A DNA stretch of 64,000 nucleotides from Candidatus Peribacteria bacterium RIFCSPHIGHO2_01_FULL_51_35 (GTDB lineage Bacteria > Patescibacteriota > Gracilibacteria > Peribacterales > Peribacteraceae): contig MFXP01000015.1 in the NCBI GenBank assembly GCA_001787535.1, positions 22,549 to 86,548 of the forward strand. Reading direction: 5' to 3'. Within the stretch, counting starts at the first letter, position 1. Every line of letters begins with the position of its first letter. The notes below the pieces were generated by a model. It had not been told where the DNA came from and did not search any database. It saw only the letters and a program-made list of their open reading frames with translations. Positions 4,440 through 63,875 of this stretch are shown in pieces. The position numbers and the translations under genes are program-made.

Positions 4440-4709
4440 TCACTGCGATTGAGGTATCGCCTTAAGAGTTTCGCGCAACATGTGTTTCAAAGCCCCCTTC
4501 CCTTGTGTAGTCTTTAGATATTTTTCACGTCGAAGTGCGTCATCTTGAGAAATATATGCTTCAGCAAAGATGAGCTTCCATGGCCTCTTGGCTTTCGTTG
4601 AAGTGACACTGCCTTTGTTATGAGTTTCAAGTCGCTGTTTCAAGTCAGTTGTATAACCAACATAGAGCTGGTCATTTTGCTGACTTCGAAGAACATACAC
4701 TGTAAACAT
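4440..4709 (-). CDS. GIY-YIG nuclease family protein (small, stand-alone)
   Basis: MFTVYVLRS...LYVGYTTDLKQRLETHN... is the GIY-(10-11 aa)-YVG motif followed by R..H/N. The start is placed at the internal Met of ORF 4440-4736. Confidence 0.8.
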   Translation of the reverse strand: MFTVYVLRSQQNDQLYVGYTTDLKQRLETHNKGSVTSTKAKRPWKLIFAEAYISQDDALRREKYLKTTQGKGALKHMLRETLKAIPQSQ

Positions 4710-4870
4710 GGTCTTGCAATTATAGTCTCGTAACATGCATCCGCAACATACGGAACAAGCCCCGTAGTGTGCGCTTCGCGCAACTACAGGGCACGAAGCA
4801 TGCGCTGTGCCCCATTATCATTTCATAATTTCGTGGCCTGCCATGAAGTTGCGCCGCAGCGCATACTTCG

Positions 4871-4945
4871 TGGTGGTCCCGGCGGGAATCGAACCTGCAT
4901 TTACCCCTTAGGAGAGGGTCGTTCTATCCATTGAACTACAGGACC
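4871..4945 (-). tRNA. tRNA-Arg (anticodon CCU), CCA encoded
   Basis: The reverse complement folds as a cloverleaf: acceptor GGTCCTG/CGGGACC, D arm GTTC..GAAC, anticodon stem ACCCT/GGGGT with loop CTCCTAA, T loop TTCGATT. There is one A-C mismatch in the T stem. Confidence 0.75.
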
Positions 4946-5596: not shown

Positions 5597-5681
5597 GCAA
5601 AGGAAACAGAGGAAACAAAAGAATCTCCAGGATCGCTTGCGTCCTCTGAGTCCTTTGCTTCATTTGTTTCCTCTGTTTCCC
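5597..5681. repeat. GGAAACA-word long hairpin between murA and the downstream ORF
   Basis: GGAAACAGAGGAAACAAA (5601-5618) is exactly complementary to TTTGTTTCCTCTGTTTCC (5663-5680). The loop is about 44 nt. Confidence 0.85.
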
Positions 5682-6946: not shown

Positions 6947-7003
6947 AAGGACTAGAAGTGTAGCAGAAAGGAAGGTGGAGGGATTGGCTTATAGATGCCA
7001 AAT

Positions 7004-7090
7004 AAGCAGAAAGCGCAGAGTAGAAAGCATAGAGCGGACGGGAAAGCGCATCCTTTACTTTCTGCTCTATGCTCTTTGCTTTCTGCTTTT
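7004..7090. repeat. CAGAAAGC-word hairpin (same family as 63745-63828)
   Basis: Left arm AAGCAGAAAGCGCAGAGTAGAAAGCATAGAGC, right arm TTTACTTTCTGCTCTATGCTCTTTGCTTTCTGCTTTT. It lies between the lspA stop and the murA start. Confidence 0.85.
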
Positions 7091-7525
7091 CTCGATTACC
7101 CATTCCAAAAGCAACAATGCCACTCCGATGGTGATGAACGAGTCTGCGACATTGAAGACGGGAAACGTTCCCACTTGAAAAAAATCCGTCACAAATCCGT
7201 CGCGCAGACGATCCAAAATATTTGCGAGTGCACCGCCGAGTATCATCCCGAATCCAACATGTGTGAGAAGCGTCTTCGTGGACCTCACTGCAAAAATTGC
7301 GACGAGAACAAGTGCTGCGAGGATCAAAATTTCTTGGAATCCCGCAGGGAGCTGCAGCCCGAATGCGATGCCGGGATTCAGTGCCGGGTCAAGTCCGATG
7401 AATTGACCGATAATGGCAATACGCTCGACGAGATAGACATCGGCAAGAAGCTTCGCGGCGAAGCTAAGGGCAAAACTGAGTGCGCCGACAAGGAGAAGGA
7501 TTTGCACGAGAAGATGATATACCAC
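7067..7525 (-). CDS. lspA: lipoprotein signal peptidase II
   Basis: NPGIAFGL and FPVFNVADSFITIGV motifs, 152 aa, four TM segments. Confidence 0.9.
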   Translation of the reverse strand: MVYHLLVQILLLVGALSFALSFAAKLLADVYLVERIAIIGQFIGLDPALNPGIAFGLQLPAGFQEILILAALVLVAIFAVRSTKTLLTHVGFGMILGGALANILDRLRDGFVTDFFQVGTFPVFNVADSFITIGVALLLLEWVIEKSRKQRA

Positions 7526-7558
7526 TCCGCGATCGCACGTTATACTCCCTGCCCGAAC

Positions 7559-8749
7559 ATGTTCCGCCGCATCGATTTTCTGCTCCTCGGCATCACGATA
7601 GTGTTGACATTCTTCGGCCTCGCGATGATCGCGAGCGTCAGCGTGTTCGAAAGCTACCAGATCACGCAGCGTCTGACGGATGAGGGCTTGCGCGCAGCGC
7701 CCACCAATTCCTTTTATCTATGGCGCAGCTTCCTCCACATCGTCGTCGGCATGTCCGCGATGACGGTGATGATCATCCTTCCGTATAAGATGTGGCAGCG
7801 TCTTGCTCGACCGCTGTTTCTCTTAAGCATCGTTCTTTTAATTGCGCTGTTTATTCCCGGCATCAGCGCGGGATACGGCAGCGCAGCCAGTTGGCTGCGC
7901 TTGGGTCCTTTTTCCTTGCAGCCATCGGAGGTTTTAAAGATCACGCTGATTTTTTATCTGGCGGTGTGGCTGCAGAAACGCGAGCAACTGATCGGAACGT
8001 TTAAGGAGGGATTCGTTCCGTTCGTGTCGCTCCTCGTTCTCTCCACACTGCTCGTCGCCATTCAACCGGACTTGGGTTCTTTCTTCGTCATTGCCGGCAT
8101 CGCGTGCGTCATGTTTTTCATTGCGGGAGGAAATCTGTTTCACCTGCTTATGGGCGGAGGCGCGGCGGCGCTCCTTGGCCTCCCGATCATTCTCAATAAA
8201 GAATATGTGCGAGCGCGCTTCATGGCATTCTTGAATCCCACGGACCCGAACATCTCGGAAACCATCGGATTCCAGATCAAGCAGGCGCTCATCGCCATCG
8301 GTTCCGGCGGGTTCTTTGGCGTCGGATACGGAAAATCCATTCAAAAATTCGGCTACCTGCCGGAAGTCCAAGCGGACATGGTCTTCTCCGCGATGGCGGA
8401 GGAGCTTGGTTTCTTTCGGGTCATGCTCGTGCTGCTGATGTACAGCATCCTCGTCATCCGAGGGTACAAGATCGCACAAGAAGCGCCGGATAGGTTCGGA
8501 TTCATGGTGGCAACGGGCATCACGACCTGGATAGCCTTTCAAACCATTGTGAACCTCGCAGTGAATCTTTCGCTCTTCCCACTCACAGGACTCACGTTGC
8601 CCTTCATCAGCTACGGAGGATCTTCGCTCGTGTCTATTTTGATCGGCGTCGGGGTGCTTCTGAATATTTCCATGCACTCGACGGAGGAAGCCAGCATGGC
8701 AAGAAGGGCGAGGAAGACGAAGGTGGGGATTAGAAAATTATTCGCCTGA
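7559..8749 (+). CDS. ftsW: FtsW/RodA/SpoVE family peptidoglycan glycosyltransferase
   Basis: Polytopic SEDS protein (..QPSE..K.., ..LPFISYGGSS..) upstream of murG. The start is set at ATG 7559 (MFRRIDFLLLG) because the longer ORF would overlap lspA. Confidence 0.85.
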   Translation: MFRRIDFLLLGITIVLTFFGLAMIASVSVFESYQITQRLTDEGLRAAPTNSFYLWRSFLHIVVGMSAMTVMIILPYKMWQRLARPLFLLSIVLLIALFIPGISAGYGSAASWLRLGPFSLQPSEVLKITLIFYLAVWLQKREQLIGTFKEGFVPFVSLLVLSTLLVAIQPDLGSFFVIAGIACVMFFIAGGNLFHLLMGGGAAALLGLPIILNKEYVRARFMAFLNPTDPNISETIGFQIKQALIAIGSGGFFGVGYGKSIQKFGYLPEVQADMVFSAMAEELGFFRVMLVLLMYSILVIRGYKIAQEAPDRFGFMVATGITTWIAFQTIVNLAVNLSLFPLTGLTLPFISYGGSSLVSILIGVGVLLNISMHSTEEASMARRARKTKVGIRKLFA

Positions 8750-8757
8750 TTTGTAAG

Positions 8758-8848
8758 GTTTGCTGGTTTGCTCGTCCGCCTTTGGCGGACTTGTTAGCTG
8801 GTTTGCTGGTTAACGAGCAAACAAGCAAACTAGCTAACCAGCAAACAA
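8758..8848. repeat. GCAAAC-word imperfect palindromic element, copy 2 (between ftsW and murG)
   Basis: Almost base-for-base identical to 1932-2033. Confidence 0.9.
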
Positions 8849-8880
8849 AATCGTAGGGCAAGAACAGGTAGAATACACTC

Positions 8881-9918
8881 ATGAAAATCTTGTTTGCCGG
8901 CGGCGGCTCCGTCGGGCACATAGCGCCGAGTGTTGCTGTGTGGCAGGCGATGAAGCAATTGGATGCGTCCACAGAGCCGCTGTTCCTATGTTCCGACCGC
9001 ATGGAAGATCTGAATTATATCGCGAAGGAACGCGTTCCTGTGCGCGCCGTGGCTCTGCCGAAACGCAATCTCTGGATGCCGATGCTCCTCGTACAGGCGT
9101 ACCGCCAAGCGGCGCTGAGCATTCGCTTATTCAAGCCTGACGTCGTCTTCAGTAAAGGAGGCGCGGTGAGCGTGCCCATCTGCCTTGCTGCGTGGTGGAA
9201 AAAAATTCCGATCGTGCTGCATGAATCCGATGCGCGCATGGGCATCGCAAACAGAATGATCGCAAAAATTGCAGACACGGTGTGCCTGGGATTCGATGAA
9301 ACAATGATCGTGGATCCCCGCATGCAGGTGACAGGCAATCCCGTCCGCGCGGGCGTCACGAAAGGAGTAAAAGAAGAAGGGCTGCGCATAACAGGTTTTT
9401 CCGGCGACCGTCCTGTGTTGATGGTGATAGGAGGAAGCCAAGGGGCAACGGCCATCAATGATGTCGTCCGCACGCTTCTTCCCAAACTTCTCGAAACATT
9501 TGATGTTATTCATCTCACGGGTCCCGGAAAAAATGGAGCACCCAAGACGGCCGGCTATTTCGCCAAAGAATTCGCGTATGAAGAACTCCCTCATTTGTAT
9601 GCCGTCACGAGCGTCGCACTCAGCCGTGCGGGTGCGGGAGGTATCTGTGAACTTGCAGCGAACGGCATCCCGACTATTCTGACGCCCCTCCGTGGCGTGG
9701 CAAACGATCATCAGCAGGCAAATGCACTCGCAGCTGCCCGTTCGGAGGGGTGCATTGTGCTTCCTCAAGAAAAGTTGTCTGCCGAGCTCTTGCCCACCCT
9801 CCAAAACATGATCGAGCCCGGCCGTCACGTGCTTCTTTCCGAACGAATTTCAGGTCTGAACCCCCCGAATGCGGCGCAGAGGATTGCCGAAATCATCCGC
9901 AGTACAGCTAAAAAATAA
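8881..9918 (+). CDS. murG: undecaprenyldiphospho-muramoylpentapeptide beta-N-acetylglucosaminyltransferase
   Basis: MKILFAGGGSVGHIAP N-terminus, GGSQGA motif, 345 aa. Confidence 0.95.
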   Translation: MKILFAGGGSVGHIAPSVAVWQAMKQLDASTEPLFLCSDRMEDLNYIAKERVPVRAVALPKRNLWMPMLLVQAYRQAALSIRLFKPDVVFSKGGAVSVPICLAAWWKKIPIVLHESDARMGIANRMIAKIADTVCLGFDETMIVDPRMQVTGNPVRAGVTKGVKEEGLRITGFSGDRPVLMVIGGSQGATAINDVVRTLLPKLLETFDVIHLTGPGKNGAPKTAGYFAKEFAYEELPHLYAVTSVALSRAGAGGICELAANGIPTILTPLRGVANDHQQANALAAARSEGCIVLPQEKLSAELLPTLQNMIEPGRHVLLSERISGLNPPNAAQRIAEIIRSTAKK

Positions 9919-10793: not shown

Positions 10794-10856
10794 GAAGACA
10801 TAAGACACAAGATGTAAGACAGCTGTATCTTGTGTCTTATGTCTTGTATCTTTTTT
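10794..10856 (+). terminator. AAGAC-word hairpin followed by a T-run (likely intrinsic terminator of the PPIase gene)
   Basis: AAGACACAAGAT (10802-10813) pairs with ATCTTGTGTCTT (10827-10838). The centre is ACAGCTGT and TTTTTT follows. Confidence 0.7.
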
Positions 10857-13199: not shown

Positions 13200-13236
13200 G
13201 CGGGTCGAACCTGCCTGCCGGTAGGCAGGGACCCGC
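13200..13236 (+). terminator. GC-rich nested hairpin 3' of murB
   Basis: GCGGGTC..CCTGCC-tgccggta-GGCAGG..GACCCGC. Its inner core is related to the hairpin at 43139-43176. Confidence 0.55.
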
Positions 13237-13678: not shown

Positions 13679-14533
13679 TCAAAACGGCAAATCCTCTGCT
13701 TTGATTTCGGATGCGTAGGCAATCTCCGGCACCTCTACGGATGCAGAGGCGGGAGCGCTGTCGTCCGACTTAGCATCAGAGCGGGCAGGACGTGCATCGG
13801 CACGGAAAGAAGTTTCCGCGACGGAGTTTTTCACGCCAAGGAGCAGAACGGAGTCTGCAATGACTTCCGTCGTGTAGCGCTTGTGGCCGTCTTTGGTTTC
13901 CCAACTGCGTGTTTGCACGCGGCCGGAAACAAAGACACGGTTGCCTTTCTTGATGTTGGAAGTGACTTCCTGAGCAAGCGCACCCCAGATGACGACGTTG
14001 TGAAATTCGGAACGCTCTTTGAGCTCATTCGTCGATTTGTCTTTCCACTTTTCATTCGTGGCGACACCCAGTGTCAGCACTTGTACGCCGCCGGTGGTGG
14101 TGCGCAGTTCCGGATCACGAGTGACGTGACCGATAATGTCTGCGCGGTTCAAATTATTGGTGATGGACTTTGCATTCGCAGGTGCTGCGAGCTGCCCGTC
14201 CTTGGGATCTAAAAGAATCATATCGAGCGCGACCATCTTGGTCTTGCTGCGCTTTTCACCGGTCTTTTCATCTTCCCAGCTGTCTGTTTGGAGGCGGCCC
14301 GCGACGAAGACGTGGCTGCCGGGTTTCACGAAACGTCCCGCGACGTCCGCCATGGGACCCCACAGAGTGACAGTGTGAAAGCCTTTGCCGTCCAGCATGT
14401 CGCCGCTTTCGGCTTTGAAGGAATAGGGAACGACAAGGTTAAGATCGACAACACTCGTACCGCTGGGCGTCTGCCGAGGGGAAACGGGTTCTGTCTGGTA
14501 GCCGATGATGTGCACGCGATTGAGGGAGAACAT
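13679..14533 (-). CDS. ssb: single-stranded DNA-binding protein with two tandem OB folds
   Basis: Two SSB-like OB segments (NRVHIIGYQT... and NRADIIGHVTRDPELR...), then a disordered Ala/Ser/Asp-rich tail ending in the acidic tip EDLPF. Confidence 0.85.
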   Translation of the reverse strand: MFSLNRVHIIGYQTEPVSPRQTPSGTSVVDLNLVVPYSFKAESGDMLDGKGFHTVTLWGPMADVAGRFVKPGSHVFVAGRLQTDSWEDEKTGEKRSKTKMVALDMILLDPKDGQLAAPANAKSITNNLNRADIIGHVTRDPELRTTTGGVQVLTLGVATNEKWKDKSTNELKERSEFHNVVIWGALAQEVTSNIKKGNRVFVSGRVQTRSWETKDGHKRYTTEVIADSVLLLGVKNSVAETSFRADARPARSDAKSDDSAPASASVEVPEIAYASEIKAEDLPF

Positions 14534-14839
14534 ATCTCGAAGGGAGAAATGGGATAAAAGGAGGTCACGAGCAGTGCGTGCTGCTTTACGATGACTTGGC
14601 TTCCGTCCTAGCTAGAAACGGCAACCGCCACAGTTGTACACTCGTACACCAATGGATGGCAACAGATTGTAGTGGCAAGAGCTCGTAATTATTTTCTAAA
14701 TATACATTTTCCTATCTCAAAATACAGGAATGTTTTCCGTCAACATCGGTTACGGGTTCTTGGCCTCAGCTTGCTGTGATCAGCATCATTTTTCTGTTAT
14801 AATTATCAGATTTTACATACACACACCCGCTCTTGGCTT

Positions 14840-17800
14840 TTGCTCATTTGCTCGGGATTCTTAGCTGCCCTGGGAGCCTCTGCAGTGCATGCCGAACATT
14901 TCTCTATCTCCAAAAATCCTCCGGCCTCCTTTGAGGAGATCAAGAAAGTCGTGACCGAGGACATTCCGAAGGATTTGAAAAAGGCGCAGTGCGGCGGATG
15001 GGATACGGATCAAAGCGTGGTGGGAAAAATTCCTGTCGTGACAGGCGTGCCGGGACGCGATGCGGATCCGCTGGGAAACATTCGCTCCGGCATGGCAAAA
15101 CGAAATGATAATTTTATTTTCCCCGATGAACCGACGACGAAAGGACTGGCGACTGCCTGCCAACCGAATGTCGGAAACAAAGATGATCCTGCATCGCAGA
15201 CAATCAAGGTGTTGCAGTGGACAGGTTTCGGCCCCGCGGAAAATAAACGGGAGATCGAGGTGCCGCATCCATACTTCGAGGATCCCCCTTGCGTGTGGCG
15301 GGCGGGTGGAGAAAAACTTCAGCCACCCTTGAACGAAGCGAAATGTCGTGAATTTTGCGAGTTTGTGAACAGTCCGCTCTTCACGTTCTGGGATTGCAGA
15401 GTGTCTGCGCCCATCTTGGACGATGCAGGCAATGTTGTCGGCACGCAATGCATTCAGGACGGCCAGAAATACACCTGCACGCAGGACTGGATAGACCTCC
15501 CCTTTGACGGAGGCGATCCGAACAATTCGGTGGATGCGAATCTCGCAGGCATCATTCCGCAACTGAAACAGTTCTGCGATCCGAATGCGCCGCACCCGGC
15601 GGCAGGTTTGTCCAATGCGCGTTCGTGCAGAGGAGAAGCATGCCGCACTGTCGAGGGAAACAACGCGCCATACATGTCGTACTACCGCAGTTATGAAGCA
15701 AGTTACCGACGCGATCCTGTGATCACGGACAAGAACACGGACATTGCCTCCAACAATGCGCAGGTGGCCTGTTACGGTCTCTACAGAGAATTCGATCCGA
15801 AGACGAAAGTGATGGAGAAAGAGGATCAACGGTGCGTGATCCAAATGGACGTGTCGCAATACCCAAAAAGCCAGCAGGGGAAGGGTGACACCAAGAGCGA
15901 TCTTGCGGATCCGGATCCTTCCGGGCCGATTCTTCGCGATCCGACGTTCAAGGAATCGGAGGATCTGTGGTACCAAAACTTGGGAGGAGGAATGTCCTTC
16001 CTGAACGACAAAGTATTTTCGGAAGAATTTGCGAAAGATTTATCGACGGCGCTCCTTACGGCCGACGAAGCCAAGCAGCGTGCGGCGCAGCCATTCGTCG
16101 ATCCTAAAAAGACGGTAGCCGATGCGGCGTTGGTGCGCGCGTTCGATGATACGGTTTCAAACGAGCGTGGCGATAAGCGCACCGTTACGGAATGGTGGCA
16201 GCGCTTGGAGACGGACGCCAACCGCATCTTCACACGACCGGTGGTGAGGCTGTTCCTCCCGCCCGCATGGTCGTTCGGCATCGATGCATTGGACCCCATT
16301 CTTGTGCAGAATGCGAACTCTCCGGAAGGATCGGATCCCGCGGCCGTGATTCGCAGCGACCCGCGCATGCTCTCCATCGAAGCGCAGTTGAATGCCAAGG
16401 AAGACACGCTGGGGCAAGTGGCAAAGTTGCTGGAGCGCAACCTTCTCTTCACGACGCAGGAGGAGATTATTCCGTTCGTCTACCCTCTGGGTTCTGTGAC
16501 GGAATTCCGGGCTGTGAAGCAAGCGTGGATCACGTGGCGAGCCATTCAGAAAGGCGCGGATGGATCTGCACCGTTCCCTGGCGAAGACGAAGTGAACGCC
16601 CTGATTGAAAAATTGGAACAGTACGCCATACAAGCGGAAGGCGTTCGCACGCTCCGTGCCGAACTGCCGCGCTACATTGGTCAGCTCACGGCCAGACAGC
16701 AGGAAATTGCCGCGGAAATTGCGGCGTGGGAGGAAAAGAATCTCACAGCGTACCGTGATTATCTCGTGGGACTCAAGCAAATGGATGAACTGCGCTCGAC
16801 GTGGAGAACACTCCAGCAGAAGTACATCGATTTCCATGACAAGACGAATATGCCGTGGTGCAAGAACGACCGCTTCACGACGTCGATCTACTCGCTCGTT
16901 TCCCTCTGGCTCCCGCAGCGCGAAGGGCAGCAAGGGTTGGATTTGGACAGCGACGATGTCGGCTCCTGCGAAGCGCAGGATGGCCTGCCTCGTTTCTGTG
17001 TTCCGGAGAACGAGAAAGATCTGGTCTTCGATTTCACTCATATGGAATTCACGCGTGCAAAGACTCCCGTGAAAATCCCGGTGCTCAAGCCTACGCTCGT
17101 GCGCTTACAGCTTCCGCTGCCGCCGGGGCACACGGAAACAATCCAAGATCCAAAGGCGCTGGAACTGCCGGATTTCCCGCCGGTGCCTTCCATTTTCGCA
17201 GCGCTCTCTCAGCAACCGTTTCCGCAAATCAAAAAGCCGATCAACGCTCCCGACATCATCGAAGTGAACAGGCTGCTGCCCAGCGAACCGCGCATGGAAC
17301 AGTGGAAAGACGTGCTCACGCGGGCGACGACGGTCATCACGAACATGAACGAAGCCTACAAACAATTCTGGGACAGCATTCAGATGTTCGATCCCGCGTG
17401 GCGCGAGCGTGAAAAAATGCCCGAGCCGACGTGCGATACCGAAGACGGTCCCGTGCCTATGCAACCGTTGGACTGTTGCGGCTTCGGCAAGGTGCACTGC
17501 GTGCACCCGGAGCCGGATCTGCTCGAAAGGATCAAGCGCATCGGCGACAGGCCCGCAGTCTTGGTCAAGGAAGATTTCCAAGCGAGGGGTGACCCAAGAA
17601 AATTGCCCGAATGCGACCCGAAAGATCATGTGTGCCAGACGGTGCTCCCGGAGGAGCGATCGCAGGTGCAAGGGTGGCAGGTGCAGATGCCGAAGGAATC
17701 GCCCGACGCGGAAACCATGATCGAAAAACTGCGCACGAACCTGCGCGAACAAACACTCACGCCCGCAGCAGAGATCCGGGGCAACATTCCATATGAGGAA

Positions 17801-18757: not shown

Positions 18758-19567
18758 ATGCATCTTGCAAAAAGATGCAAGACACAAGACACAAGATACA
18801 AACGATTATTTCTTGCGTCTTGTATCTTGTGTCTTAACGTTGGAGTAGTTGCAATAGCCATCGGCACATTTGCAATAATGCATTCGAATGCGAATGCTCA
18901 AAACACCGATCGTGCGGAACCCGTGCTGGCCGCATGTTCCGGCTCCTCCATCGTATTTCCCAAGAATCGTTTCATCTTCCTCACGAATCCCGTGGAACGC
19001 TTGCGCAGGGACTACCACGCAACCGTGGAAAAAGTCATCACCGCGCACATGGAAGAGCGCACGATTGTCTGCACGGAAGGCGTGCGCGAAGTGCCTACAG
19101 AGGCATTGAATGATCTTGCAGAGAGACTGCCGCCGTGGCGTTCTCCCATTCGCTCCGCCGGTCTTCGTGAATCCGATATCAGCGCCGTGCTGCTGGAATA
19201 CGTGCGCGTCTATGAATGCGCCCTGAAGGAACATGAGTATTTCGGCGCAACGCGCGTCGCGAAGGATACGGAAGATGGCGCGGGCATCTTCAATATCTTC
19301 AGGTTCTTGAATACGTCCGCCGAGCGCACGGATTTGATCCGTAAAGAATTGATCTTCGCTCGGCGCGCACTGGAACGCACGCTTGCGCTCCTCGGCGGCA
19401 TGGATCGCTTGCGCCCGGTGGATGCGAGCTTGGAATGTTTACAGCTCTCATCCTTTGAGATTCGAAACCTCGTTGCTCTCGCAGCGGACGCGGCGTCCTG
19501 CATACCGCGCGCACTGGATGCAAAAACCTCCCTCCGCGACATCTCCGCAGATCCTCCCGTAGAATGA
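18758..19567 (+). CDS. secreted/membrane-anchored protein 3 (unknown function; start uncertain)
   Basis: In-frame ATG at 18758 gives MHLAKRCKTQDTRYKRLFLASCILCLNVGVVAIAIGTFAIMHSNANA, which is signal-like but encoded by the arms of a word hairpin. The alternative ATG at 18879 would lack a signal. Confidence 0.55.
   Translation: MHLAKRCKTQDTRYKRLFLASCILCLNVGVVAIAIGTFAIMHSNANAQNTDRAEPVLAACSGSSIVFPKNRFIFLTNPVERLRRDYHATVEKVITAHMEERTIVCTEGVREVPTEALNDLAERLPPWRSPIRSAGLRESDISAVLLEYVRVYECALKEHEYFGATRVAKDTEDGAGIFNIFRFLNTSAERTDLIRKELIFARRALERTLALLGGMDRLRPVDASLECLQLSSFEIRNLVALAADAASCIPRALDAKTSLRDISADPPVE
18786..18835. repeat. AAGAC-word hairpin between or overlapping operon genes 2 and 3
   Basis: AGACACAAGATACA pairs with TGTATCTTGTGTCT around a ~20-nt loop. 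It uses the same word family as 10794-10856 and the arms flanking 37193-37558. Confidence 0.85.
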
Positions 19568-31954: not shown

Positions 31955-32015
31955 TGGTGCCCAGGAGAGGACCCTTCCTCGCTTCGCTCGTCAGGGCAGG
32001 CTTGAACCTTCACTT
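31955..32015 (-). repeat. duplicated 3' fragment of tRNA-Leu (acceptor/T-arm remnant with a ~29-nt insertion)
   Basis: TGGTGCCCAGGAGAGGAC (31955-31972) is identical to 32288-32305. A further CTTGAACCT match follows after the inserted CCTTCCTCGCTTCGCTCGTCAGGGCAGG. Confidence 0.85.
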
Positions 32016-32248
32016 TTCCATAGGCGCTCTTTCTTCTCTCGTCTCCATCCTTTGATTTCTTTTTCACGTTTTCGAGCTGAAACTCGATCGAGCCGAGGCT
32101 CCGACCAAATCAAGTGTTTCATGGGAATCTTCTTTGTGTGACTGCATGCAATTCCGGCAATGTGTTCGGAAAGACGTCTTTGAAGATTATCAGTATGCCC
32201 TACATAATAGGATCCATCTGCCAACTCTAGAATATAAACATGGAACAT
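31991..32248 (-). CDS. GIY-YIG nuclease family protein (small, stand-alone)
   Basis: MFHVYILELADGSYYVGHTDNLQRRLSEH... The start is at the internal Met; the longer track ORF would run into the tRNA. Confidence 0.8.
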   Translation of the reverse strand: MFHVYILELADGSYYVGHTDNLQRRLSEHIAGIACSHTKKIPMKHLIWSEPRLDRVSARKREKEIKGWRREKKERLWKSEGSSLP

Positions 32249-32287: not shown

Positions 32288-32373
32288 TGGTGCCCAGGAG
32301 AGGACTTGAACCTCCAAGGGATTGCTCCCACCAGCTCCTAAGGCTGGCGTGTCTGCCATTTCACCACCTGGGC
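32288..32373 (-). tRNA. tRNA-Leu (anticodon UAG), long variable arm, CCA encoded
   Basis: The reverse complement is GCCCAGG-TG-GTGAAATGGCAGACAC-G-CCAGC-CTTAGGA-GCTGG-(long variable arm)-T arm GGTTCAAGTCC-...CCTGGGC-A-CCA. Confidence 0.9.
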
Positions 32374-33545: not shown

Positions 33546-33911
33546 ATGATCTACGCACGATTGCTGCGCAGGCGCATGACCGAAGCAGAGGCATTCCTTT
33601 GGAAAGCATTGCGATCCAGGCGGTTTGCTCACCTAAAATTTCGACGGCAGGTTCCCATCGATGTCTATATCGTCGATTTTCTATGTTGGGAATACCAATT
33701 AATTCTGGAAATTGATGGAGGCATTCACTTGTCCCAAAAAGACCGTGACCTCTTCCGTGAAGATGAGCTCGAAAAGCGAGGATTCACCATCTTACGTTTT
33801 ACAAATGAAGAAGTTCTCTCTCATCTCCATGGAGTTCTGACGACAATTGAAAATGTGATCAAACAAAAACACCAACATCCCCCTCTCCGGGTAAGCGAAG
33901 AGACCTTGTGA
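33546..33911 (+). CDS. DUF559 (Vsr-like fold) endonuclease-domain protein
   Basis: RRRMTEAEAFLWKALRSRRF...FRRQVPI..YIVDF......LILEIDGG.H......D..R...L...GF.ILRF.N.EV is the characteristic DUF559 pattern. Confidence 0.8.
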   Translation: MIYARLLRRRMTEAEAFLWKALRSRRFAHLKFRRQVPIDVYIVDFLCWEYQLILEIDGGIHLSQKDRDLFREDELEKRGFTILRFTNEEVLSHLHGVLTTIENVIKQKHQHPPLRVSEETL

Positions 33912-37167: not shown

Positions 37168-37197
37168 AGAAGTAAGACTCAAGACATAAGACTTAAG
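37168..37197. repeat. left arm of a split AAGAC-word hairpin flanking the four-helix-bundle gene
   Basis: GAAGTAAGACTCAAGACATAAGACTTAAG matches the reverse complement of 37585-37613 at about 22 of 29 positions. Confidence 0.75.
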
Positions 37198-37558: not shown

Positions 37559-37584
37559 TTTTTCAACTTGAGCTGCGAGGTTGC

Positions 37585-37613
37585 TTACATCTTACATCTT
37601 ATGTCTTACGTCT
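37585..37613. repeat. right arm of the split AAGAC-word hairpin
   Basis: CTTACATCTTACATCTTATGTCTTACGTC lies ~27 nt upstream of the four-helix-bundle start. Confidence 0.75.
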
Positions 37614-43138: not shown

Positions 43139-43176
43139 GCGCCCCTGCCTACCGGCAGGCAGGCACGAAGGGGCGC
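43139..43176 (-). terminator. GC-rich nested hairpin 3' of the flippase gene
   Basis: GCGCCCCT...GCCT-accggc-AGGC...AGGGGCGC. Confidence 0.55.
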
Positions 43177-45948: not shown

Positions 45949-46866
45949 ATGCCACTCTCCTTCAAGCACCTCACGTCCACCAAACAACTCCTGCGGAGGG
46001 ACACAGACGCCATTTTGCAAACAGCTGCGGAGATGGAGAAGGTGCTGCTCAAAGGAGGAAATGATCTGCTCGCAGGAAAAATCCTCGCGAGCCTATTTTA
46101 CGAACCCAGTACGCGCACGCGCCTGAGCTTCGAAACCGCCATGCGCCGGCTCGGCGGAGAAGTGATCAGTGCGGAAGGAATCCAATTCAGTTCCCTCTAT
46201 AAAGGGGAGACGGTGGAGGACACCATGAAGGTCGTCGGAAGTTACGCAGATATCATCACCATGCGTCACCCCGAACAGGGGAGCGCAGACAGGGCGGCCT
46301 CGGTCTGCCCCGTGCCATTCATCAATGCAGGCGACGGTCCTGGCCAGCATCCCACGCAAGCATTGCTGGATCTCTTCACCATCCACAAAGAGCGCGGCAC
46401 CATCGACGGGCTCAAGATCGCAATGGCCGGAGATTTGCGCTACGGACGCACTGTGCACTCGCTCACGTTCCTCCTTGGCCTCTACAAAAATTTGCGTTTC
46501 ACATTCATCTCACCAAAAGAACTCACTATGCCGGACAAGGTGACAACGTTCTTAAAAGAGCACGACATTCCGTATGAAGAAACGCATGCACTCTCCGCAG
46601 GACTGGTGTCCGATGTCCTCTATATGACGCGCGTACAGGAGGAACGCTTTGCGGATCACAGTGAGTATGAGCGCCTGAAAGACATGTATCGCTTGGATGC
46701 CAAGATGCTCAAAGGAAAAGAAGTCACCGTCATGCATCCGCTTCCGCGCGTCGGGGAAATTGCCACCGATGTCGATGCACTCAAAACCGCTGCGTACTTC
46801 CGCCAAGCCAAGAACGGCGTGCCGGTGCGCATGGCGCTTCTTGCGATGCTTCTTCAGGCGATCTGA
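45949..46866 (+). CDS. pyrB: aspartate carbamoyltransferase catalytic subunit
   Basis: FYEPSTRTRLSFE, HPTQALLD and HPLPR motifs; 305 aa. Confidence 0.95.
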   Translation: MPLSFKHLTSTKQLLRRDTDAILQTAAEMEKVLLKGGNDLLAGKILASLFYEPSTRTRLSFETAMRRLGGEVISAEGIQFSSLYKGETVEDTMKVVGSYADIITMRHPEQGSADRAASVCPVPFINAGDGPGQHPTQALLDLFTIHKERGTIDGLKIAMAGDLRYGRTVHSLTFLLGLYKNLRFTFISPKELTMPDKVTTFLKEHDIPYEETHALSAGLVSDVLYMTRVQEERFADHSEYERLKDMYRLDAKMLKGKEVTVMHPLPRVGEIATDVDALKTAAYFRQAKNGVPVRMALLAMLLQAI

Positions 46867-48101
46867 TGTCCTCTTCCCTCATTCACTTCCCGCGGCTCAT
46901 CGACTGCCACGTCCATTTCCGCGAGCCGGGATTGGAGCACAAAGGAACGATGGCAACAGAAGCAGCCGCAGCGCGTGCCGGAGGAGTCGGAACCGTGTGT
47001 GAAATGCCAAACACCATTCCGCCGACGGTAACGGTCGCAGCTCTTGCCGACAAAGTGCGACGTGCGCATGCAATAAAAGACTGCGATATTCGTTTCTTCT
47101 TCGGTGTCACAGAAAAAACGCATTTGATTGCACTACGAAACATTTGGATTAAGAGTGATTTTGAACTGCAGCGGCTCAAGAAAAAATGCTGCGGTGTGAA
47201 ACTGTACTTAGATCACTCCACAGGGAACCAAAAGGCAGAGAGCGATGTTGTGGAAGAAGCCTTTAAGCTCTGCGGAGAGCTGGGAATTCCCGTGGTAGCG
47301 CACTGTGAGGACTCGATGATCAACGAGGTGGAAAGAGGAAGGTGGAAAGAGGAAAGTGATGACATTTCACTTTACTCGAAGATGCGGTCACCAGAATCGG
47401 AAGCCAAGTCGATCGCTTTTGCGATCGGTCTCGCACGGAAGTACAAAACCAAGTTCCATGTTGCACATCTTTCGACAGCACTGGGACTCGATCTTGTGCG
47501 CGATGCGAAGAAAGAAGGACTCTCGGTGACATGTGAAGTCGCTCCGCATCATTTATTTCTTACAACGGATGATTACAAGACGCTGGGAACGCTCGGCAAA
47601 ATGAATCCGCCTCTGCGTTCAAAAGAAGATCAAGCAGTGCTGTGGCAGGGAATAGCCGATGGCACGGTGGACTGCATTGCAACCGACCATGCGCCGCATA
47701 CGCTGGAAGAAAAAGGTGTCGTTGTAGGGGCGACGCATGCGTCGCCCCTACAACATCAATCCAATATTGATTTCCAGAAAATTCCGAGCGGAGTTCCAGG
47801 AGTTGAAACCATGTTGCCGCTCTTGCTCATGGTCGCAGCAGGAAACTGGCCGCACCCCTCATCAAAACGTCCATCCACGGCAAAACTTTCTTACGAGGAC
47901 ATCGTGAAGCTCTGCTTCACCAATCCGAACAGAATATTTTCCCTTGGCTGCAGCGATGCGAGAGTTTTCACAATCGATCCGAAGAAAGAGTGGACAATCC
48001 ATGCATCCGATCTCCATTCAAAATGCGGATGGACCCCTTACGAAGATTGGCATGTTCGGGGAAAAATTATCGGCGGGTGGCCTGCCGACCGTAGCACTTA
48101 A
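46866..48101 (+). CDS. pyrC: dihydroorotase
   Basis: IDCHVHFREPG, the ...AHCED segment and ATDHAPHT motifs. Its start overlaps the pyrB stop by 1 nt. It contains an in-frame palindrome insertion (see 47721-47754). Confidence 0.9.
   Translation: MSSSLIHFPRLIDCHVHFREPGLEHKGTMATEAAAARAGGVGTVCEMPNTIPPTVTVAALADKVRRAHAIKDCDIRFFFGVTEKTHLIALRNIWIKSDFELQRLKKKCCGVKLYLDHSTGNQKAESDVVEEAFKLCGELGIPVVAHCEDSMINEVERGRWKEESDDISLYSKMRSPESEAKSIAFAIGLARKYKTKFHVAHLSTALGLDLVRDAKKEGLSVTCEVAPHHLFLTTDDYKTLGTLGKMNPPLRSKEDQAVLWQGIADGTVDCIATDHAPHTLEEKGVVVGATHASPLQHQSNIDFQKIPSGVPGVETMLPLLLMVAAGNWPHPSSKRPSTAKLSYEDIVKLCFTNPNRIFSLGCSDARVFTIDPKKEWTIHASDLHSKCGWTPYEDWHVRGKIIGGWPADRST
47721..47754. repeat. perfect 34-nt palindrome inside pyrC
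   Basis: GTTGTAGGGGCGACGCA|TGCGTCGCCCCTACAAC; the two 17-nt halves are exact reverse complements. Confidence 0.95.
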
Positions 48102-48855: not shown

Positions 48856-48918
48856 AATGACCAATGACGCAATGACCAATGACCAACTTGGTCATTGGTC
48901 ATTGCGTCATTGGTCATT
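48856..48918. repeat. 63-nt near-perfect palindrome built of AATGACC words
   Basis: AATGACCAATGACGCAATGACCAATGACCAA-c-TTGGTCATTGGTCATTGCGTCATTGGTCATT has 31-nt perfectly complementary arms. It lies between the RNase J stop and the HAD start. Confidence 0.95.
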
Positions 48919-51565: not shown

Positions 51566-53530
51566 ATGGACATCGCACTCCAGACGGGCCATACCAAGTC
51601 GAGTACCGGAGAGTCTCTGGTTTCCCTGTCGCTCACGTCCGAGCGCGGCGAACATGCCTGTCTGTTGCTGCAAATAGGGGCGAGTCCCAAAGATGCAAAA
51701 ACATTGGAGGAGGAATGCACGACCATCGTGAAACATGCGCTTCTCGATTCCGAAGGGGATTCCTGGAGCCGTTTGGACGGAACGCTCAAAGAAATGAACG
51801 GCCTCTTCAAGGGGTTGCTGGTCTCGGAGACGGTGCAAGACATTCACGCACTCTTGGCCATCATGGACACGAAGAAGATGCTCCATGTCTCCCATGCCGG
51901 CAGGGCGGAAGCGTATTTGATTCGCGGAGGCCAGACCAGCCAGATCACGGAATACAGCAAGGGGAAACCGAATCCCGTCTTCGTGCACATTTCCAGCGGC
52001 CAACTGGAAGCGCGCGATATTGTGGTGTGCTCGACACAAAGGCTTCTTCGAACCGTCACCCCCGCGCAACTTTCGCAACTCTCGCAGCGGGGGGATCAGT
52101 TGCTGGATGAGATCATTATTCAATTGGATGCAGAGCGCGAACACGCGTCCGTCGCCACCCTTCATATTCCCGCAAAGAATCAACGCATATTGGACGATGA
52201 GCCCGCCGCTCGCCCGGCTCTTTCCACTCGCAGAAGCGGTCATCGGCGATCCTCCGCATCCATCCTCGCTCGGTTCACGACATTCCTGCCCGCTCTCACA
52301 AACGGTCTTCGCACGAAACTGCCGAGAACGACGGGCGTTTCAAACTTTGTGCAAGAACTCCGTGAACGCTTTGCATCATTCCTTACGGACCTCAAGCACC
52401 CCGAACGCAAGCGCAGAGCACATCTCCTTCTTCTCGCCTCCGCCGTGGCCGCCTTCCTGATCATTTGGATGGTCGTGCGACTCTCGACCTCCAGCCAACG
52501 CAGCAAAACGCGCGCCGAGCTGGAGGATCTCGTCAGCAAGATCAATACCGAGATCCGCACGGCGGACAACAGGAGACTCACGGGCGACATCGACAGCGCC
52601 AATGCCATTCTCCAACAGGCCGAAGAGCGCGCCAAGCAGGTGATGGACAACGAAAGCGGTCTCTTCCGCGTGGAAGCGCTGGATCTCTTGGACAGGATCC
52701 GCAGCAAGCGCGAGGAAATCAACAACATCATCCGTCTGCCACCGCGCCTGGTCGTGAATATCGGCGCAAAGAACCCTGACGTGGAAGCGCAGGGAATCAT
52801 CGGTGTGGGGGACGGCGAGTTTACCGTTTACGATCGTCAAGATCTTCACCGCGTACTCCTCAATTCCGTGGATGACCCCGACAGACTCTCCGACGAGGAG
52901 CTGATTATGGATGGTGCGGGTTTCTCTCGTTACAAATCGCTCGTATTCCTCACCACGGGCAACAGCGTCATCGAAATGATCGCGAATCAACCGACAACCA
53001 TGAAGACGGAAGACACGGCCGGGTGGAAATCCGGCAACGACATCGAGACGTACCTGCGTTTCCTCTACGTCCTCTCCCCGGAAAAGAATCAGATCTACAA
53101 GTATGAGCGTTTGAGCAATCGCTACGGACCTCCCGTGGAATACAATGTGAATGGAACGCTGGGCAAAGCGCTGGACATGGTCATCGATTCCAGCGTGTTT
53201 GTGCTGAATGAAGGAGGAACGGTGCTCAAGCTTCTCCGCGGAGAGGTGCAGCCGTTCGTCATCCGTCATGCTCCCGACAATGTTCTTGCGGACGCCACGA
53301 AGCTCTTCAAAGTCACGGACAGCAACATCTACTTCCTGGATCCAAAGAAGGCGCGCGTCATTGTTACGACAGACGGCGGCGCCACCGGCGAATCCTCCTA
53401 TGTGAAACAGTATGTCTTCGAGGGAGAACAAATCGGCACGCTTCAAGATCTCTTCGTCGATCCCGACCAGACGCATTTGTACGTGCTGGATGAGAAGAGG
53501 CTGTATGTGGTGGATTTGGCGACAAAATAG
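51566..53530 (+). CDS. membrane protein with an N-terminal PP2C-like (possibly non-catalytic) domain and a large C-terminal extracytoplasmic domain
   Basis: The HVSHAGRAEAYLIRGGQTSQITE segment resembles the PP2C GDSR.YL.R.G...QLT motif. A central TM segment (LLLLASAVAAFLIIWMVV) is present. Canonical Asp-rich metal motifs are not evident. Confidence 0.4.
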   Translation: MDIALQTGHTKSSTGESLVSLSLTSERGEHACLLLQIGASPKDAKTLEEECTTIVKHALLDSEGDSWSRLDGTLKEMNGLFKGLLVSETVQDIHALLAIMDTKKMLHVSHAGRAEAYLIRGGQTSQITEYSKGKPNPVFVHISSGQLEARDIVVCSTQRLLRTVTPAQLSQLSQRGDQLLDEIIIQLDAEREHASVATLHIPAKNQRILDDEPAARPALSTRRSGHRRSSASILARFTTFLPALTNGLRTKLPRTTGVSNFVQELRERFASFLTDLKHPERKRRAHLLLLASAVAAFLIIWMVVRLSTSSQRSKTRAELEDLVSKINTEIRTADNRRLTGDIDSANAILQQAEERAKQVMDNESGLFRVEALDLLDRIRSKREEINNIIRLPPRLVVNIGAKNPDVEAQGIIGVGDGEFTVYDRQDLHRVLLNSVDDPDRLSDEELIMDGAGFSRYKSLVFLTTGNSVIEMIANQPTTMKTEDTAGWKSGNDIETYLRFLYVLSPEKNQIYKYERLSNRYGPPVEYNVNGTLGKALDMVIDSSVFVLNEGGTVLKLLRGEVQPFVIRHAPDNVLADATKLFKVTDSNIYFLDPKKARVIVTTDGGATGESSYVKQYVFEGEQIGTLQDLFVDPDQTHLYVLDEKRLYVVDLATK

Positions 53531-53625
53531 AATATTGGATTATCGGAGTACTGGAATATTGGGGTGATTTCTGTGTGCATTTCCTAGTATTCTAGTATTC
53601 CAGTACTCCAGTACTCCAGTATTCC
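53531..53625. repeat. hairpin whose arms are tandem 8-mers (GARTAYTG)n / (CAGTAYTC)n
   Basis: Left arm is GAATATTG|GATTATCG|GAGTACTG|GAATATTG, starting at the last base of the upstream stop codon. Right arm is TAGTATTC|TAGTATTC|CAGTACTC|CAGTACTC|CAGTATTC (53585-53624). Confidence 0.9.
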
Positions 53626-59225: not shown

Positions 59226-59629
59226 GAGGGGAGGCAAGGGATTATGGCAGAAAACTTCAATTTTTTCCAGTTTACCCCGCAGCAGTTTGACTATAAACGG
59301 TATGTTGCTGATCAGCTCATAAACAGTAGTCAGCATTGTCCAAACTGGTGCGGGGTCTACAGCAGGGTCTTCTGATTCTCTTCCACCTTTGTCCGGCGAC
59401 AAAGGTGGAGCCAAAACGCCGGCGCGCCAATAGCTCCTCCACCCGACCCAGCGCCTCCTCGTCGGCTCCTCCAAGCCACGGTCGCTCGCGAGCGACGTGG
59501 CAAGGCTTCGGAGCCGACTCGTCGTCCACGCTGCGGCGTGAAGCTGGGTCTTCCCCTTCACCCCCCGTGGCGCGCCACCCTCCCAGCTCAATTAATGTGA
59601 GTGATATGTGATGTGCTATTCTGCACTCC

Positions 59630-60294: not shown

Positions 60295-60327
60295 AAAAAA
60301 GCCTCTTCGTGTTGAAGAGGTTTCTTT
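60295..60327. terminator. bidirectional intrinsic terminator between the pilin gene and rnpB
   Basis: AAAAAA-G-CCTCTTC-gtgtt-GAAGAGG-TTTCTTT. Confidence 0.75.
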
Positions 60328-60826
60328 GTCCGCTCTTTCCTACGCCGGGTTCTGTCGTCGGTTGACTCTTATGCATCAGGAGTTAACCGAGGATGATCAT
60401 CTCTCTTGGACGGCAATTGCTCGCCGCCTCAAGCGGAGGGGTCTCTGGACTCGGGGAACCGCGAGGGATTCCGAAGACCCAAATCCTCCTTACACCACCT
60501 AGAGTTTACCAAGTCCCTTGCGGGGTCCTCCATTCTAGCTGGAGGCGTTTCACATGCCCTTGCGGGCTCGTCTCTGTGGTACTGGTCCTCACGCGTCTTT
60601 ACCGAATATATGATGCGCGGATGGGCGTTACCCACTAGGCGTTCCTACGACGACGGCTTGCCCTGAGAGAGCGAAGCGAATCGAAGGGTGCCCGGACGTT
60701 CCTCCCGCCTGCGCTCCTCACTTCGTTCGGAGCTACGGCGGGCAGGCTCCTTATGCACGGAGCTTGCCCACCGAAGTCTCTTTGCGAAGCAAAGAGCGTA
60801 GGCGGGCGATCATCGAAAGAGCGGAC
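60328..60826 (-). ncRNA. rnpB: RNase P RNA, bacterial type A, unusually long (~500 nt)
   Basis: On the minus strand: P1 GTCCGCTCTTTC/GAAAGAGCGGAC, CR-I GGAGGAACGTCCGGGC, GGGTAACGCC, GGTAAACTC and CR-V ACAGAACCCGGCGTA. Confidence 0.9.
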
Positions 60827-60968: not shown

Positions 60969-61147
60969 TAAAAAATTGACGTGCAAGGGATTTCCCTGTT
61001 TATTTTGCGTATGTCCGGGGGAATCCACGCAGGCACTTCCTCTCCAGATCTCGAACTCTCAGTCGATTCACTTTATTTTTGGACACGAAAACGTGAGAAC
61101 AAGACGTGGATAGAAGCGAGAGACAGGGATAATAATCCTTGAATAAA

Positions 61148-61769: not shown

Positions 61770-61822
61770 TTGATTACTTTTCCTATATTGAATTTGATGA
61801 AGCAGCATTTTCGGACAATCCC

Positions 61823-63744: not shown

Positions 63745-63828
63745 GAGCAGAAAGCGCAGAGCAGAAAGCAGAGAACAATTATTCATATCTTACTTTTTGC
63801 TTTTTGCTCTTTGCTCTTTGCTTTATGC
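63745..63828. repeat. CAGAAAGC-word hairpin, second family member
   Basis: The left arm GAGCAGAAAGCGCAGAGCAGAAAGCAGAGAAC is nearly identical to 7004-7035. The right arm is CTTACTTTTTGCTTTTTGCTCTTTGCTCTTTGCTTTATGC. Confidence 0.85.
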
Positions 63829-63875
63829 TACCAAAGGATTTTTGTTGCATTCCCCCAAACCTCTCTCGTTCTCCC

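Follow-up and report, generated by a model that had tools for sequence, protein, structure and literature searches.

The stretch of DNA analyzed here (the window) comprises 64,000 nt, about 5% of the genome of a Candidate Phyla Radiation (CPR; Peregrinibacteria) bacterium from the Rifle aquifer, has a G+C content of about 52% and is 100% identical to part of contig MFXV01000002.1 (GCA_001787565.1). It is densely filled with housekeeping genes (pyrF, murA, lspA, ftsW, murG, PPIase, gltX, murB, ssb, dnaE, aspS, mfd, dnaN, pyrB/C, RNase J, smpB, recR and purH), and 10 of its 40 spacers that measure 50 nt or more contain a hairpin in which each arm is a tandem array of a 7- to 9-nt word and the other arm is the complementary array (H1-H10). 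A preliminary description of the window had reported this shared periodic architecture with unrelated words, and all ten loci are indeed present, at or within a few bases of where it placed them. Spacers were mapped from database gene calls with one correction, the addition of lspA at 7067-7525 (-).

Nine of the hairpins are contiguous and lack an open reading frame (ORF); they are given without a strand. H1 (1931-2033; 8-mers GTTTGCTN / NAGCAAAC; -57.1 kcal/mol, z score -8.4) fills the convergent spacer between pyrF (+) and an SLH-protein gene (-), beginning 1 nt past the pyrF stop codon and ending 4 nt before the other stop, and it contains a nested GC mini-hairpin, GTCCGCC-TTCG-GGCGGAC. A near-identical copy, H4 (8758-8848; -48.8 kcal/mol, z -8.2), lies in the ftsW-murG spacer, 8 nt past the ftsW stop. 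H2 (5597-5681; -34.6 kcal/mol, z -5.1) abuts the murA (-) stop codon in the tandem spacer between murA and a 181-aa ORF; it had been described as a GGAAACA heptamer hairpin, of which the hairpin stands and the word length does not, its words being the 9-mers GGAAACAGA / TCTGTTTCC. H3 (7004-7090; 7-mers AGCAGAA/AGCGCAG against CTTTCTG; -41.8 kcal/mol, z -4.6) is located in the spacer between lspA (-) and murA (-), its right arm covering the last 8 lspA codons, and H10 (63745-63829; -34.5 kcal/mol, z -5.7), a copy of H3 from the same AGCAGAA family, begins 1 nt past the stop of a sugar-phosphotransferase gene. H5 (10794-10856; 7-mers NNAAGAC / GTCTTNN; -31.9 kcal/mol, z -7.3) occupies the PPIase-gltX spacer, and H6 (18778-18836; -28.9 kcal/mol, z -6.8), of the same NNAAGAC family, lies between two same-strand hypothetical genes. 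H8 (48856-48918; -53.6 kcal/mol, z -12.7) is a perfect 31-bp palindrome of the heptamers AATGACC / GGTCATT that begins 1 nt past the RNase J stop and in which the opposite arm exactly mirrors an irregular word (AATGACGC). H9 (53530-53625; 8-mers GARTAYTG / CAGTAYTC; -45.6 kcal/mol, z -7.8) takes up an entire spacer, running from the stop of a 654-aa gene and leaving 3 nt ahead of the following start codon. Overall, the word period is 7 in H3, H5, H6, H7, H8 and H10, 8 in H1, H4 and H9, and 9 in H2, with stems of 16-38 bp and, in the nine ORF-less hairpins, loops of 1-40 nt.

The remaining hairpin, H7, has split arms that enclose a gene. Its 5' arm (37584-37613, sense strand -; AGACGTAAGACATAAGATGTAAGATGTAAG) begins 5 nt past the dnaN stop codon, leaving 25 nt to the start of the enclosed gene, and its 3' arm (37168-37197, sense strand -; CTTAAGTCTTATGTCTTGAGTCTTAC) overlaps the stop codon of that gene and ends 2 nt before the mfd start. 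[quoted passage not shown] The preliminary description had flagged these split arms, and the locus proved to be the key one.

The hairpins also disturb gene calling. The lspA gene (signal peptidase II; PF01252, E 7.7e-26; orthologues in relatives L097-L102) is absent from the database calls, where it is masked by a hairpin-extended 584-aa 'FtsW' ORF at 6995-8749. The FtsW domain begins at residue 194 of this call, and FtsW of the relatives measures 397-406 aa; since lspA is real at 7067-7525 (-), the 584-aa product from 6995 is an artefactual extension through H3. Spurious ORFs had been attributed to the hairpins: among the examples given, 8730-9002 (-) exists, and the extended FtsW is a third such product.

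We assessed the reality of the pattern in several ways. An inverted-repeat search of the whole window (arms of at least 16 nt, at most 150 nt apart) returned 22 pairs, 14 of them in eight of the ten loci, and Tandem Repeats Finder independently gave arm periods of 7, 8 or 9. Compared with 200 dinucleotide shuffles each, the nine contiguous hairpins (-28.9 to -57.1 kcal/mol, z -4.55 to -12.71) were never matched in stability (0/200), and the two 30-nt arms of H7 form a sense-strand duplex of -30.3 kcal/mol. Arm periodicity, tested against shuffled arms as the maximum over lags 4-12, was significant at p<=0.0065 in 20 of 22 arms and at p<=0.0045 in 19 of 22; the weakest were the left arms of H3 (p=0.18) and H10 (p=0.016). 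An energy-only sliding-window census of the window did not discriminate the word hairpins, because those that are AT-rich are weaker than ordinary GC-rich structures.

We therefore counted stems with two unbiased detectors, one restricted to Watson-Crick pairs and the other tolerating wobble pairs on either strand, in the window, in 226 kb from relatives and, as a negative control, in 1.27 Mb of Firmicutes loci that came from a MurG profile search of genome contigs. The relatives share only 50-55% MurG identity, and fetched loci were either identical or about 70% identical. Stems with periodic arms numbered 8 in the window, 20 in the relatives and 5 in the Firmicutes, corresponding to 12.5, 8.9 and 0.4 per 100 kb, at an equal total stem density in the clade and Firmicutes samples (about 30 per 100 kb). 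Thus 28 of 91 stems in the clade were periodic versus 5 of 398 in Firmicutes (odds ratio 35, p=9e-18), and the five Firmicutes cases are AT-rich and unconvincing. Lack of enrichment relative to shuffled hairpins had been set beforehand as grounds for abandoning the pattern; the enrichment is strong both over shuffled arms and over ordinary hairpins, and periodic-arm hairpins are a clade-wide trait.

The other such ground, ordinary terminators with no family structure across the genome, was likewise not borne out in the window. H1 and H4 differ by two substitutions and a 10-nt indel in the apical loop; their common segment of about 95 nt runs from the stop codon (GTAA) through the final stem base, includes the nested non-periodic GC mini-hairpin and is framed by unrelated flanks. 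H3 and H10 had been proposed as a family by their left arms; the family holds, but the likeness extends to both arms (78% identity), with different loops and flanks. NNAAGAC words are common to H5, H6 and H7. The hairpin families are therefore discrete multi-copy elements with sharp boundaries, with 2-3 copies per family counted within the 64 kb of the window.

All arms are invariant across a strain-level set of 16 independent assemblies (99-100% identity). Because the hairpins are identical in all of them, they are not assembly artefacts, and hypervariable or contingency repeats are ruled out, as no arm differs among the 16 loci. Strain-level variation clusters at two other places. Left of about 32681, a region with small hypothetical ORFs, a GIY-YIG ORF and a DUF559 gene (33546-33911), one assembly (L003) diverges completely; at 59472-59500, comparison with L014 reveals a 29-nt indel upstream of, or within, the 5' end of purH. 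Two small GIY-YIG ORFs (85-98 aa) stand alone directly beside a tRNA gene, at 4440-4736 (-) with tRNA-Arg (4871-4945) and at 31991-32248 (-) with tRNA-Leu (32288-32373). The 161-nt spacer between the first of these and tRNA-Arg has a folding energy of -69.5 kcal/mol; for the second, gene sets disagree on whether to call it although the sequence is identical. Both may be selfish genes resembling homing endonucleases.

We then turn to the association of PF05635 genes with heptamer arrays. The flanks of the H7 gene have a complementarity score of 18.6, above the maximum of 13.8 in 1392 random intervals (7.45 +/- 1.26) that served as control for the Peribacteria loci. All five Peribacteria homologues, that of the window and four more, together at four different sites, have complementary period-7 arms (scores 13.2-19.2). 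One of the four further genes is at the orthologous dnaN-mfd position and the others are at PPDK|pdxS, UDP-glucose dehydrogenase|pfkB and rpsR|yebC. The element in L120, another genome, uses NNAAGAC, the word of H7, and that in L123, from a member of the Peribacteraceae, uses NNTGAGT.

A tblastn search of 72,556 plasmids found a PF05635 gene in 31 records, mostly from Nostocales. We inspected the arms of ten genes beyond Peribacteria, drawn from eight fetched plasmid records and a Victivallales contig and representing Cyanobacteria, Bacteroidota, Gemmatimonadota and Victivallales. Genes in these records are again wedged inside operons (cas6|cas4, cmr2|cmr3, nrdB|nrdA) and flanked by tandem 7-8-mers. 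Complementary arms are clear in five of the ten, as in Nostoc edaphicum (TAGGGAG x9 / CTCCCTA x5, score 36), and weak in a sixth (L125a); direct arrays flank three on both sides (L127, L131, L132) and one on one side only. Among these are IVP genes with heptamer arrays inside CRISPR-cas operons of cyanobacterial plasmids (L127 1492-1851, L129 1483-1851 and L130 1501-1857). In Pseudanabaena and Anabaena sp. 90, the site lies between type I-D cas6 and cas4; in Picosynechococcus, it lies between cmr2 and cmr3. The AAAGCTA word of L127 additionally fills neighboring cas spacers.

The association recurs on environmental or viral contigs (IMG/VR), where 41 of 56 non-redundant homologues (73%) exceed the 99th percentile of 529 matched controls in the complementarity of their flanks. 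Their arms are nearly all of period 7, for example (ACGTTCA)x5/(TGAACGT)x5. In the IVP loci inspected, strict tandem arrays cluster at the gene borders, with 9 of 24 falling within 2.8% of the sequence (p=1e-8). Many of the closest PF05635 homologues sit on contigs of only 0.5-2 kb, as would be expected if heptamer arms or multi-copy elements break short-read assemblies. PF05635 ORFs have also been found in CPR rRNA insertions (PMC11270868). Targeted literature searching, whose coverage left out most subscription journals, yielded no account of a general association between PF05635 and heptamers, and the Peribacteria genome paper makes no mention of these hairpins.

The two forms share a handedness. 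The order of the arms of a palindrome, G-rich or C-rich first, is independent of the strand on which it is read. The 5' arm is richer in G than in C for 25 of the 29 ORF-less word hairpins and for 44 of the 49 IVP-flanking arms; among ordinary stems, the counts are 22 of 58 for the same clade and 148 of 328 for Firmicutes (Fisher p=5e-5). G-rich-first handedness thus links the ORF-less and ORF-bearing forms, and ordinary stems do not have it. The arms are also of similar size, with a median of 25 nt in ORF-less and 30 nt in IVP elements (about 3.6 and 4.3 words).

To describe the complementarity of the arms, we counted mispairs in 56 IVP-bearing elements, in which the ORF fixes the sense strand, with a scoring that tolerates both transition mispairs. 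Together these stems have 1461 Watson-Crick pairs, against 162 G.U and 160 A.C mispairs. Selection for a helix in the sense-strand RNA would be expected to remove A.C and leave G.U; as A.C is not purged relative to G.U, the complementarity is symmetric at the DNA level and not demonstrably selected in RNA; the arms behave as terminal inverted repeats or as products of a copying mechanism. Greater stability of the sense strand had at first been seen in 7 of 8 hairpins of the window, and in 6 of 8 once lspA set the sense strand of H3; it was found in 3 of 9 cases in relatives (9 of 17 overall). Given this null in the relatives and in the 56 oriented elements, we rejected strand asymmetry as a sign of RNA-level selection.

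These data bear on the first rival explanation, namely that the hairpins are host-functional RNA structures at gene 3' ends that evolved in place, with periodicity only a by-product of slippage. They could then act as U-tract-independent terminators, as blocks to 3' exonucleases or as RNase III processing sites that tune operon expression. Their positions in the window suit this idea: the preliminary description had nearly all of them right after stop codons, eight of ten start 0-8 nt from one, and all ten are downstream of a gene 3' end, nine between tandem genes and one in a convergent spacer, with none in the seven divergent spacers. The invariance among strains fits as well. The exclusive 3'-end location fails in the relatives, however, where at least five hairpins occupy divergent 5'-5' spacers (lspA/ftsW in L097, L099 and L102, plus two more), and several hairpins split tightly packed operons such as ftsW-murG, where termination is not expected.

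The tails count against ordinary terminators. A T6 run follows H5, the only clear T-tract among the ten; H2, H3 and H10 have weak T-rich tails and the other six none, in keeping with the earlier remark that a T-run follows only some of the hairpins, and none of 20 hairpins of relatives has a T-tract on either strand (0/20). The U-tract expected of a Rho-independent terminator is therefore missing, and the stems are long and often AT-rich rather than short and GC-rich. Ordinary hairpins that are rich in GC do occur in other spacers of the window, and some of them, such as the one after ssb, have a classical T-run; the genome thus possesses conventional terminators, and the word hairpins form a separate class. 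The lack of strand asymmetry speaks against a role in RNA, and near-identical copies at unrelated loci, the G-first handedness and the association with PF05635 are left unexplained by host function, which we consider unlikely as the origin of the hairpins.

An Rfam scan matched no family to the hairpins. The same window contains a class A RNase P RNA at 60325-60675 (-), which scores 97.4 bits, under the Rfam gathering score of 100, and is missed by a default scan; it accounts for the structure of -73.6 kcal/mol per 120 nt in a 614-nt 'spacer' before tRNA-Thr. Palindromes of other kinds occur too. A non-periodic dispersed hairpin family, CCTGCCTGCC-GGTA-GGCAGG, is found inside longer GC-rich stems at about 13210-13229 and 43144-43163, in the murB/80-aa and fn3/Polysacc_synt spacers, and a perfect GC-rich palindrome of 34 nt without a loop (GTTGTAGGGGCGACGCA|TGCGTCGCCCCTACAAC) lies at 47721-47754 within the dihydroorotase-like ORF 46866-48101.

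Orthologous spacers of relatives permit a comparison of words. The gene order ftsW-murG-PPIase-gltX-murB-ssb is kept at 50-55% MurG identity. The ftsW-murG spacer contains GTTTGCTN words in the window, GTTTACGN in L098 and GTAGGTK in L099, and in L097 is a hairpin-free 23 nt. The PPIase-gltX spacer, occupied in at least five lineages, contains NNAAGAC in the window, GTGGACTN in L098, GGGTATT in L102 and AAAATGC in L109; in L097, it holds a textbook terminator with a GC stem and a T-run, which fits a host function there. In L098, L102 and L109, one word often recurs in neighboring spacers of the same genome. What stays constant is the design; the sequence is free. In L097, which has few word hairpins, another dispersed hairpin family (CTGTCATCCTGAG...) occurs in two adjacent spacers (13855-13955 and 14823-14926), which suggests that equivalent niches are filled by one palindrome family in one lineage and by another elsewhere.

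Such turnover of words is what one would see if the hairpins arose spontaneously and repeatedly in permissive spacers, by slippage and quasipalindrome correction against the replication or repair background of this lineage and without mobility, PF05635 genes merely landing or being retained there. The exact mirroring of the irregular word of H8 agrees with this, as do the lineage-specific abundance of ORF-less hairpins and the flanks of the ten window elements, where the best direct repeats measure 0-4 nt, within the null distribution, so that no target-site duplication is apparent. Slippage of heptamers is a known mutational mode (Mrazek 2007, as summarized in PMC4679880), and heptamer copy number varies between Coxiella strains (PMC4990558). 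Independent slippage would not, however, reproduce the roughly 95 nt that H1 and H4 share, with the nested non-periodic mini-hairpin and the order of variant words, and the same applies to H3 and H10. Chance landing can hardly account for symmetrical bracketing at the ORF ends in 73% of PF05635 genes on unrelated contigs, and the shared G-first handedness needs a common cause. We judge an origin without mobility to be improbable.

A third rival invokes REP/REPIN-type elements moved by a Y1 (IS200/RAYT-class) transposase. The window does contain a Y1_Tnp gene (61252-61695 (+); PF01797, E 5.7e-36), its sole Y1 transposase, and the REP/BIME/REPIN, Correia, ERIC and RUP elements are, like the word hairpins, small intergenic palindromes in multi-copy families that often lie just after stop codons and can have secondary roles as mRNA stabilizers or terminators. 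These elements have a conserved family sequence and no word periodicity, and REPINs have a cognate RAYT; in the word hairpins, by contrast, the sequence is free, the design is conserved and the gene that goes with them is of the PF05635 family and not a Y1 transposase. On both sides, the Y1 gene instead has GC-rich non-periodic hairpins with the core CCGGCTCTGCCGG (about 61145-61165 and 61750-61772), the nearest word hairpin is more than 1.9 kb away, and a conserved 5' tetranucleotide is absent before the stems in the flanks of the window elements. A single sequence-specific RAYT could not serve the six or more unrelated word families found within 64 kb, and a Y1 homologue occurs in just one locus of the hairpin-rich relatives, so that we give this explanation almost no credence. 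The CCGGCTCTGCCGG hairpins, unrelated to the word hairpins, are possibly an IS200 end or a REP-like pair.

Other identities were rejected more briefly. Inverted termini are present as in a miniature inverted-repeat transposable element or classical DNA transposon, but target-site duplications are not. CRISPR and TIGR arrays, whose direct repeats measure 20 nt or more and alternate with unique spacers, are excluded by contiguous units of 7-9 nt in inverted pairs and by the absence of cas genes from the window. For a diversity-generating retroelement (DGR), no reverse transcriptase domain is found in any large ORF of the window, and the IVP gene stands between dnaN and mfd. Integron attC sites do not fit, as the hairpins flank core housekeeping genes, no integrase is present and the ends miss the R''/R' consensus RYYYAAC...GTTRRRY (GTTTGC...GCAAAC in H1/H4, the reverse arrangement). 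The earlier verdict that ordinary intrinsic terminators, classical REPs and CRISPR leave the hairpins unexplained was thus confirmed, with mismatches in the T-tracts, the flanks of the Y1 gene and the form of the repeats.

The closest likeness is with the intervening sequences (IVSs) of rRNA. In the Coxiella 23S IVS, RNase III cuts a terminal stem of 28 bp, and the element also has an S23p (PF05635) ORF and 2-3 tandem GACAGAT heptamers, the number of which varies between strains; the authors of that study regard it as a selfish element and leave its origin and mobility unexplained (PMC4990558). H7 has the same layout, with inverted repeats, a long stem, a PF05635 ORF in the loop and tandem heptamers beside the ORF. 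The stems of the window compare with the roughly 20-30 bp of rRNA IVSs, in which the S23p ORF is optional, and the nine ORF-less hairpins resemble the many rRNA IVSs that lack one. In contrast to rRNA IVSs, which sit in an rRNA helix, all ten hairpins lie between protein-coding genes, and no rRNA gene is present in the window; moreover, unlike in the Coxiella IVS, the whole arm is built of words and nine of ten have no ORF. RNase III excision without religation is known for rRNA IVSs, and the length and perfection of the stems here would be compatible with it.

Repeats of cyanobacteria offer two further comparisons. The P6b stem of the Nostoc trnL intron is built on complementary 7-nt motifs, varies in length by single units and undergoes replacement of the whole region (PMC4476775). 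In the window hairpins, six of which have period 7, a degenerate short motif likewise faces its complement in the other arm. The NNTGAGT words of the L123 element and the predominance of Nostocales among plasmid-borne PF05635 genes add to the likeness. P6b, however, is a single site in a cyanobacterial (Nostoc/Calothrix) tRNA-Leu(UAA) group I intron, whereas the word hairpins occupy many intergenic sites of a CPR bacterium, in whose window tRNA-Leu (32288-32373) has no intron. The papers examined report no link of PF05635 with P6b or with the short tandemly repeated repetitive (STRR) heptamers of cyanobacteria. Direct TAACTGA heptamers in Beggiatoaceae, cyanobacteria and Bacteroidetes are intergenic, with a patchy distribution suggesting horizontal spread (PMC4679880). 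They differ in being direct repeats of one word just upstream of start codons, with one inverted pair in 170 sets; the few PF05635 genes with direct rather than inverted flanking arrays are similar to them. The H8 word, as TTGGTCA, may belong to the cyanobacterial STRR set.

Eukaryotic Foldback (FB) transposons, as in Drosophila, have long terminal inverted repeats made of tandem short subrepeats, and most copies are non-coding and little more than a hairpin, a minority having internal ORFs. They differ in being eukaryotic, in their much longer arms and in their target-site duplications; the analogy is architectural only and implies no homology.

On balance, we lean toward the view that the hairpins are foldback-like selfish palindromes of the IVS type that come in two forms, ORF-bearing and ORF-less, the latter having proliferated in this lineage. 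They would be IVS-like elements located outside rRNA and constructed in the manner of foldback transposons. On this model, an element would consist of two inverted arrays, each of about 3-5 tandem words of 7-8 nt (occasionally 9 nt), with the G-rich array almost always first. H7 would represent the ORF-bearing form, of which the classical ORF-bearing 23S rRNA IVS of Coxiella and Leptospira would be the rRNA-resident version, and H1-H6 and H8-H10 the ORF-less form, which would have multiplied into several word families in short spacers between housekeeping genes, mostly directly after stops. Slippage during replication may lengthen and shorten the word arrays, and the second arm could be kept matched at the DNA level by intrastrand template switching (quasipalindrome correction) or by conversion from arm to arm, rather than through selection on RNA. 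Copies would spread between spacers by a route that leaves no target-site duplication. Co-transcribed stems of 20-31 bp may be RNase III substrates, as in rRNA IVSs, in which case operon transcripts would be cut or stabilized as a side effect, and a few hairpins, H5 with its T6 run for one, may have been recruited as terminators. From the shared design we infer an autonomous/non-autonomous relationship between the two forms.

Several observations weigh against the selfish-element view. No presence/absence polymorphism was found among the 16 strain-level assemblies and no movement event was observed; the ten window elements show no target-site duplications beyond chance, no transposase is linked to the hairpins, and we know of no enzymatic activity of PF05635. 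Four other genomes with an IVP gene have few ORF-less word hairpins: a search there for ORF-less companions sharing the word of the IVP element found one periodic hairpin in 69 kb. The sample of roughly 226 kb from relatives rich in hairpins contained no PF05635 gene. ORF-less loops contain no recognizable ORF remnants. Finally, several spacers, among them PPIase-gltX, hold hairpins in more than one lineage, and L097 has a classical terminator at PPIase-gltX, which fits a host function at such sites.

A more far-reaching version of the selfish-element proposal would hold that a PF05635 gene between inverted tandem-heptamer arrays is a widespread, previously unrecognized autonomous foldback-type mobile element of at least six phyla, residing in rRNA as 'IVS', in operons, on plasmids and on phage-like contigs. 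Its pentameric Avd-like protein would recognize the words at both ends, with about one subunit per word. The ORF-less Peribacteria hairpins would be non-autonomous derivatives or footprints of it, and the arrays of Nostocales (STRR, trnL P6b) possibly too. We put this forward tentatively, as a possibility that we are more inclined to doubt than to accept.

In practice, the hairpins corrupt annotation, as in the over-extended FtsW, the masked lspA and the spurious ORFs, and they probably fragment metagenome assemblies. The ORF-less form takes up a quarter of the usable spacers, including the interior of the essential dcw cluster and a site beside dnaN, and the hairpins would be expected to affect operon transcripts in organisms with minimal regulatory repertoires. 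The spread of rRNA IVSs has, to our knowledge, been a puzzle since about 1990, for which the Coxiella study offers hypotheses alone, and we know of no function for the thousands of PF05635 copies (also labelled 'S23 ribosomal protein') outside the Avd protein of DGRs. A simple rule emerges, open to checking in any genome: a PF05635 gene between inverted tandem-heptamer arrays, the G-rich one leading. Three old puzzles, the nature and spread of rRNA IVSs, the role of the PF05635 family and the heptamers of Nostocales, thereby become testable and may be one.

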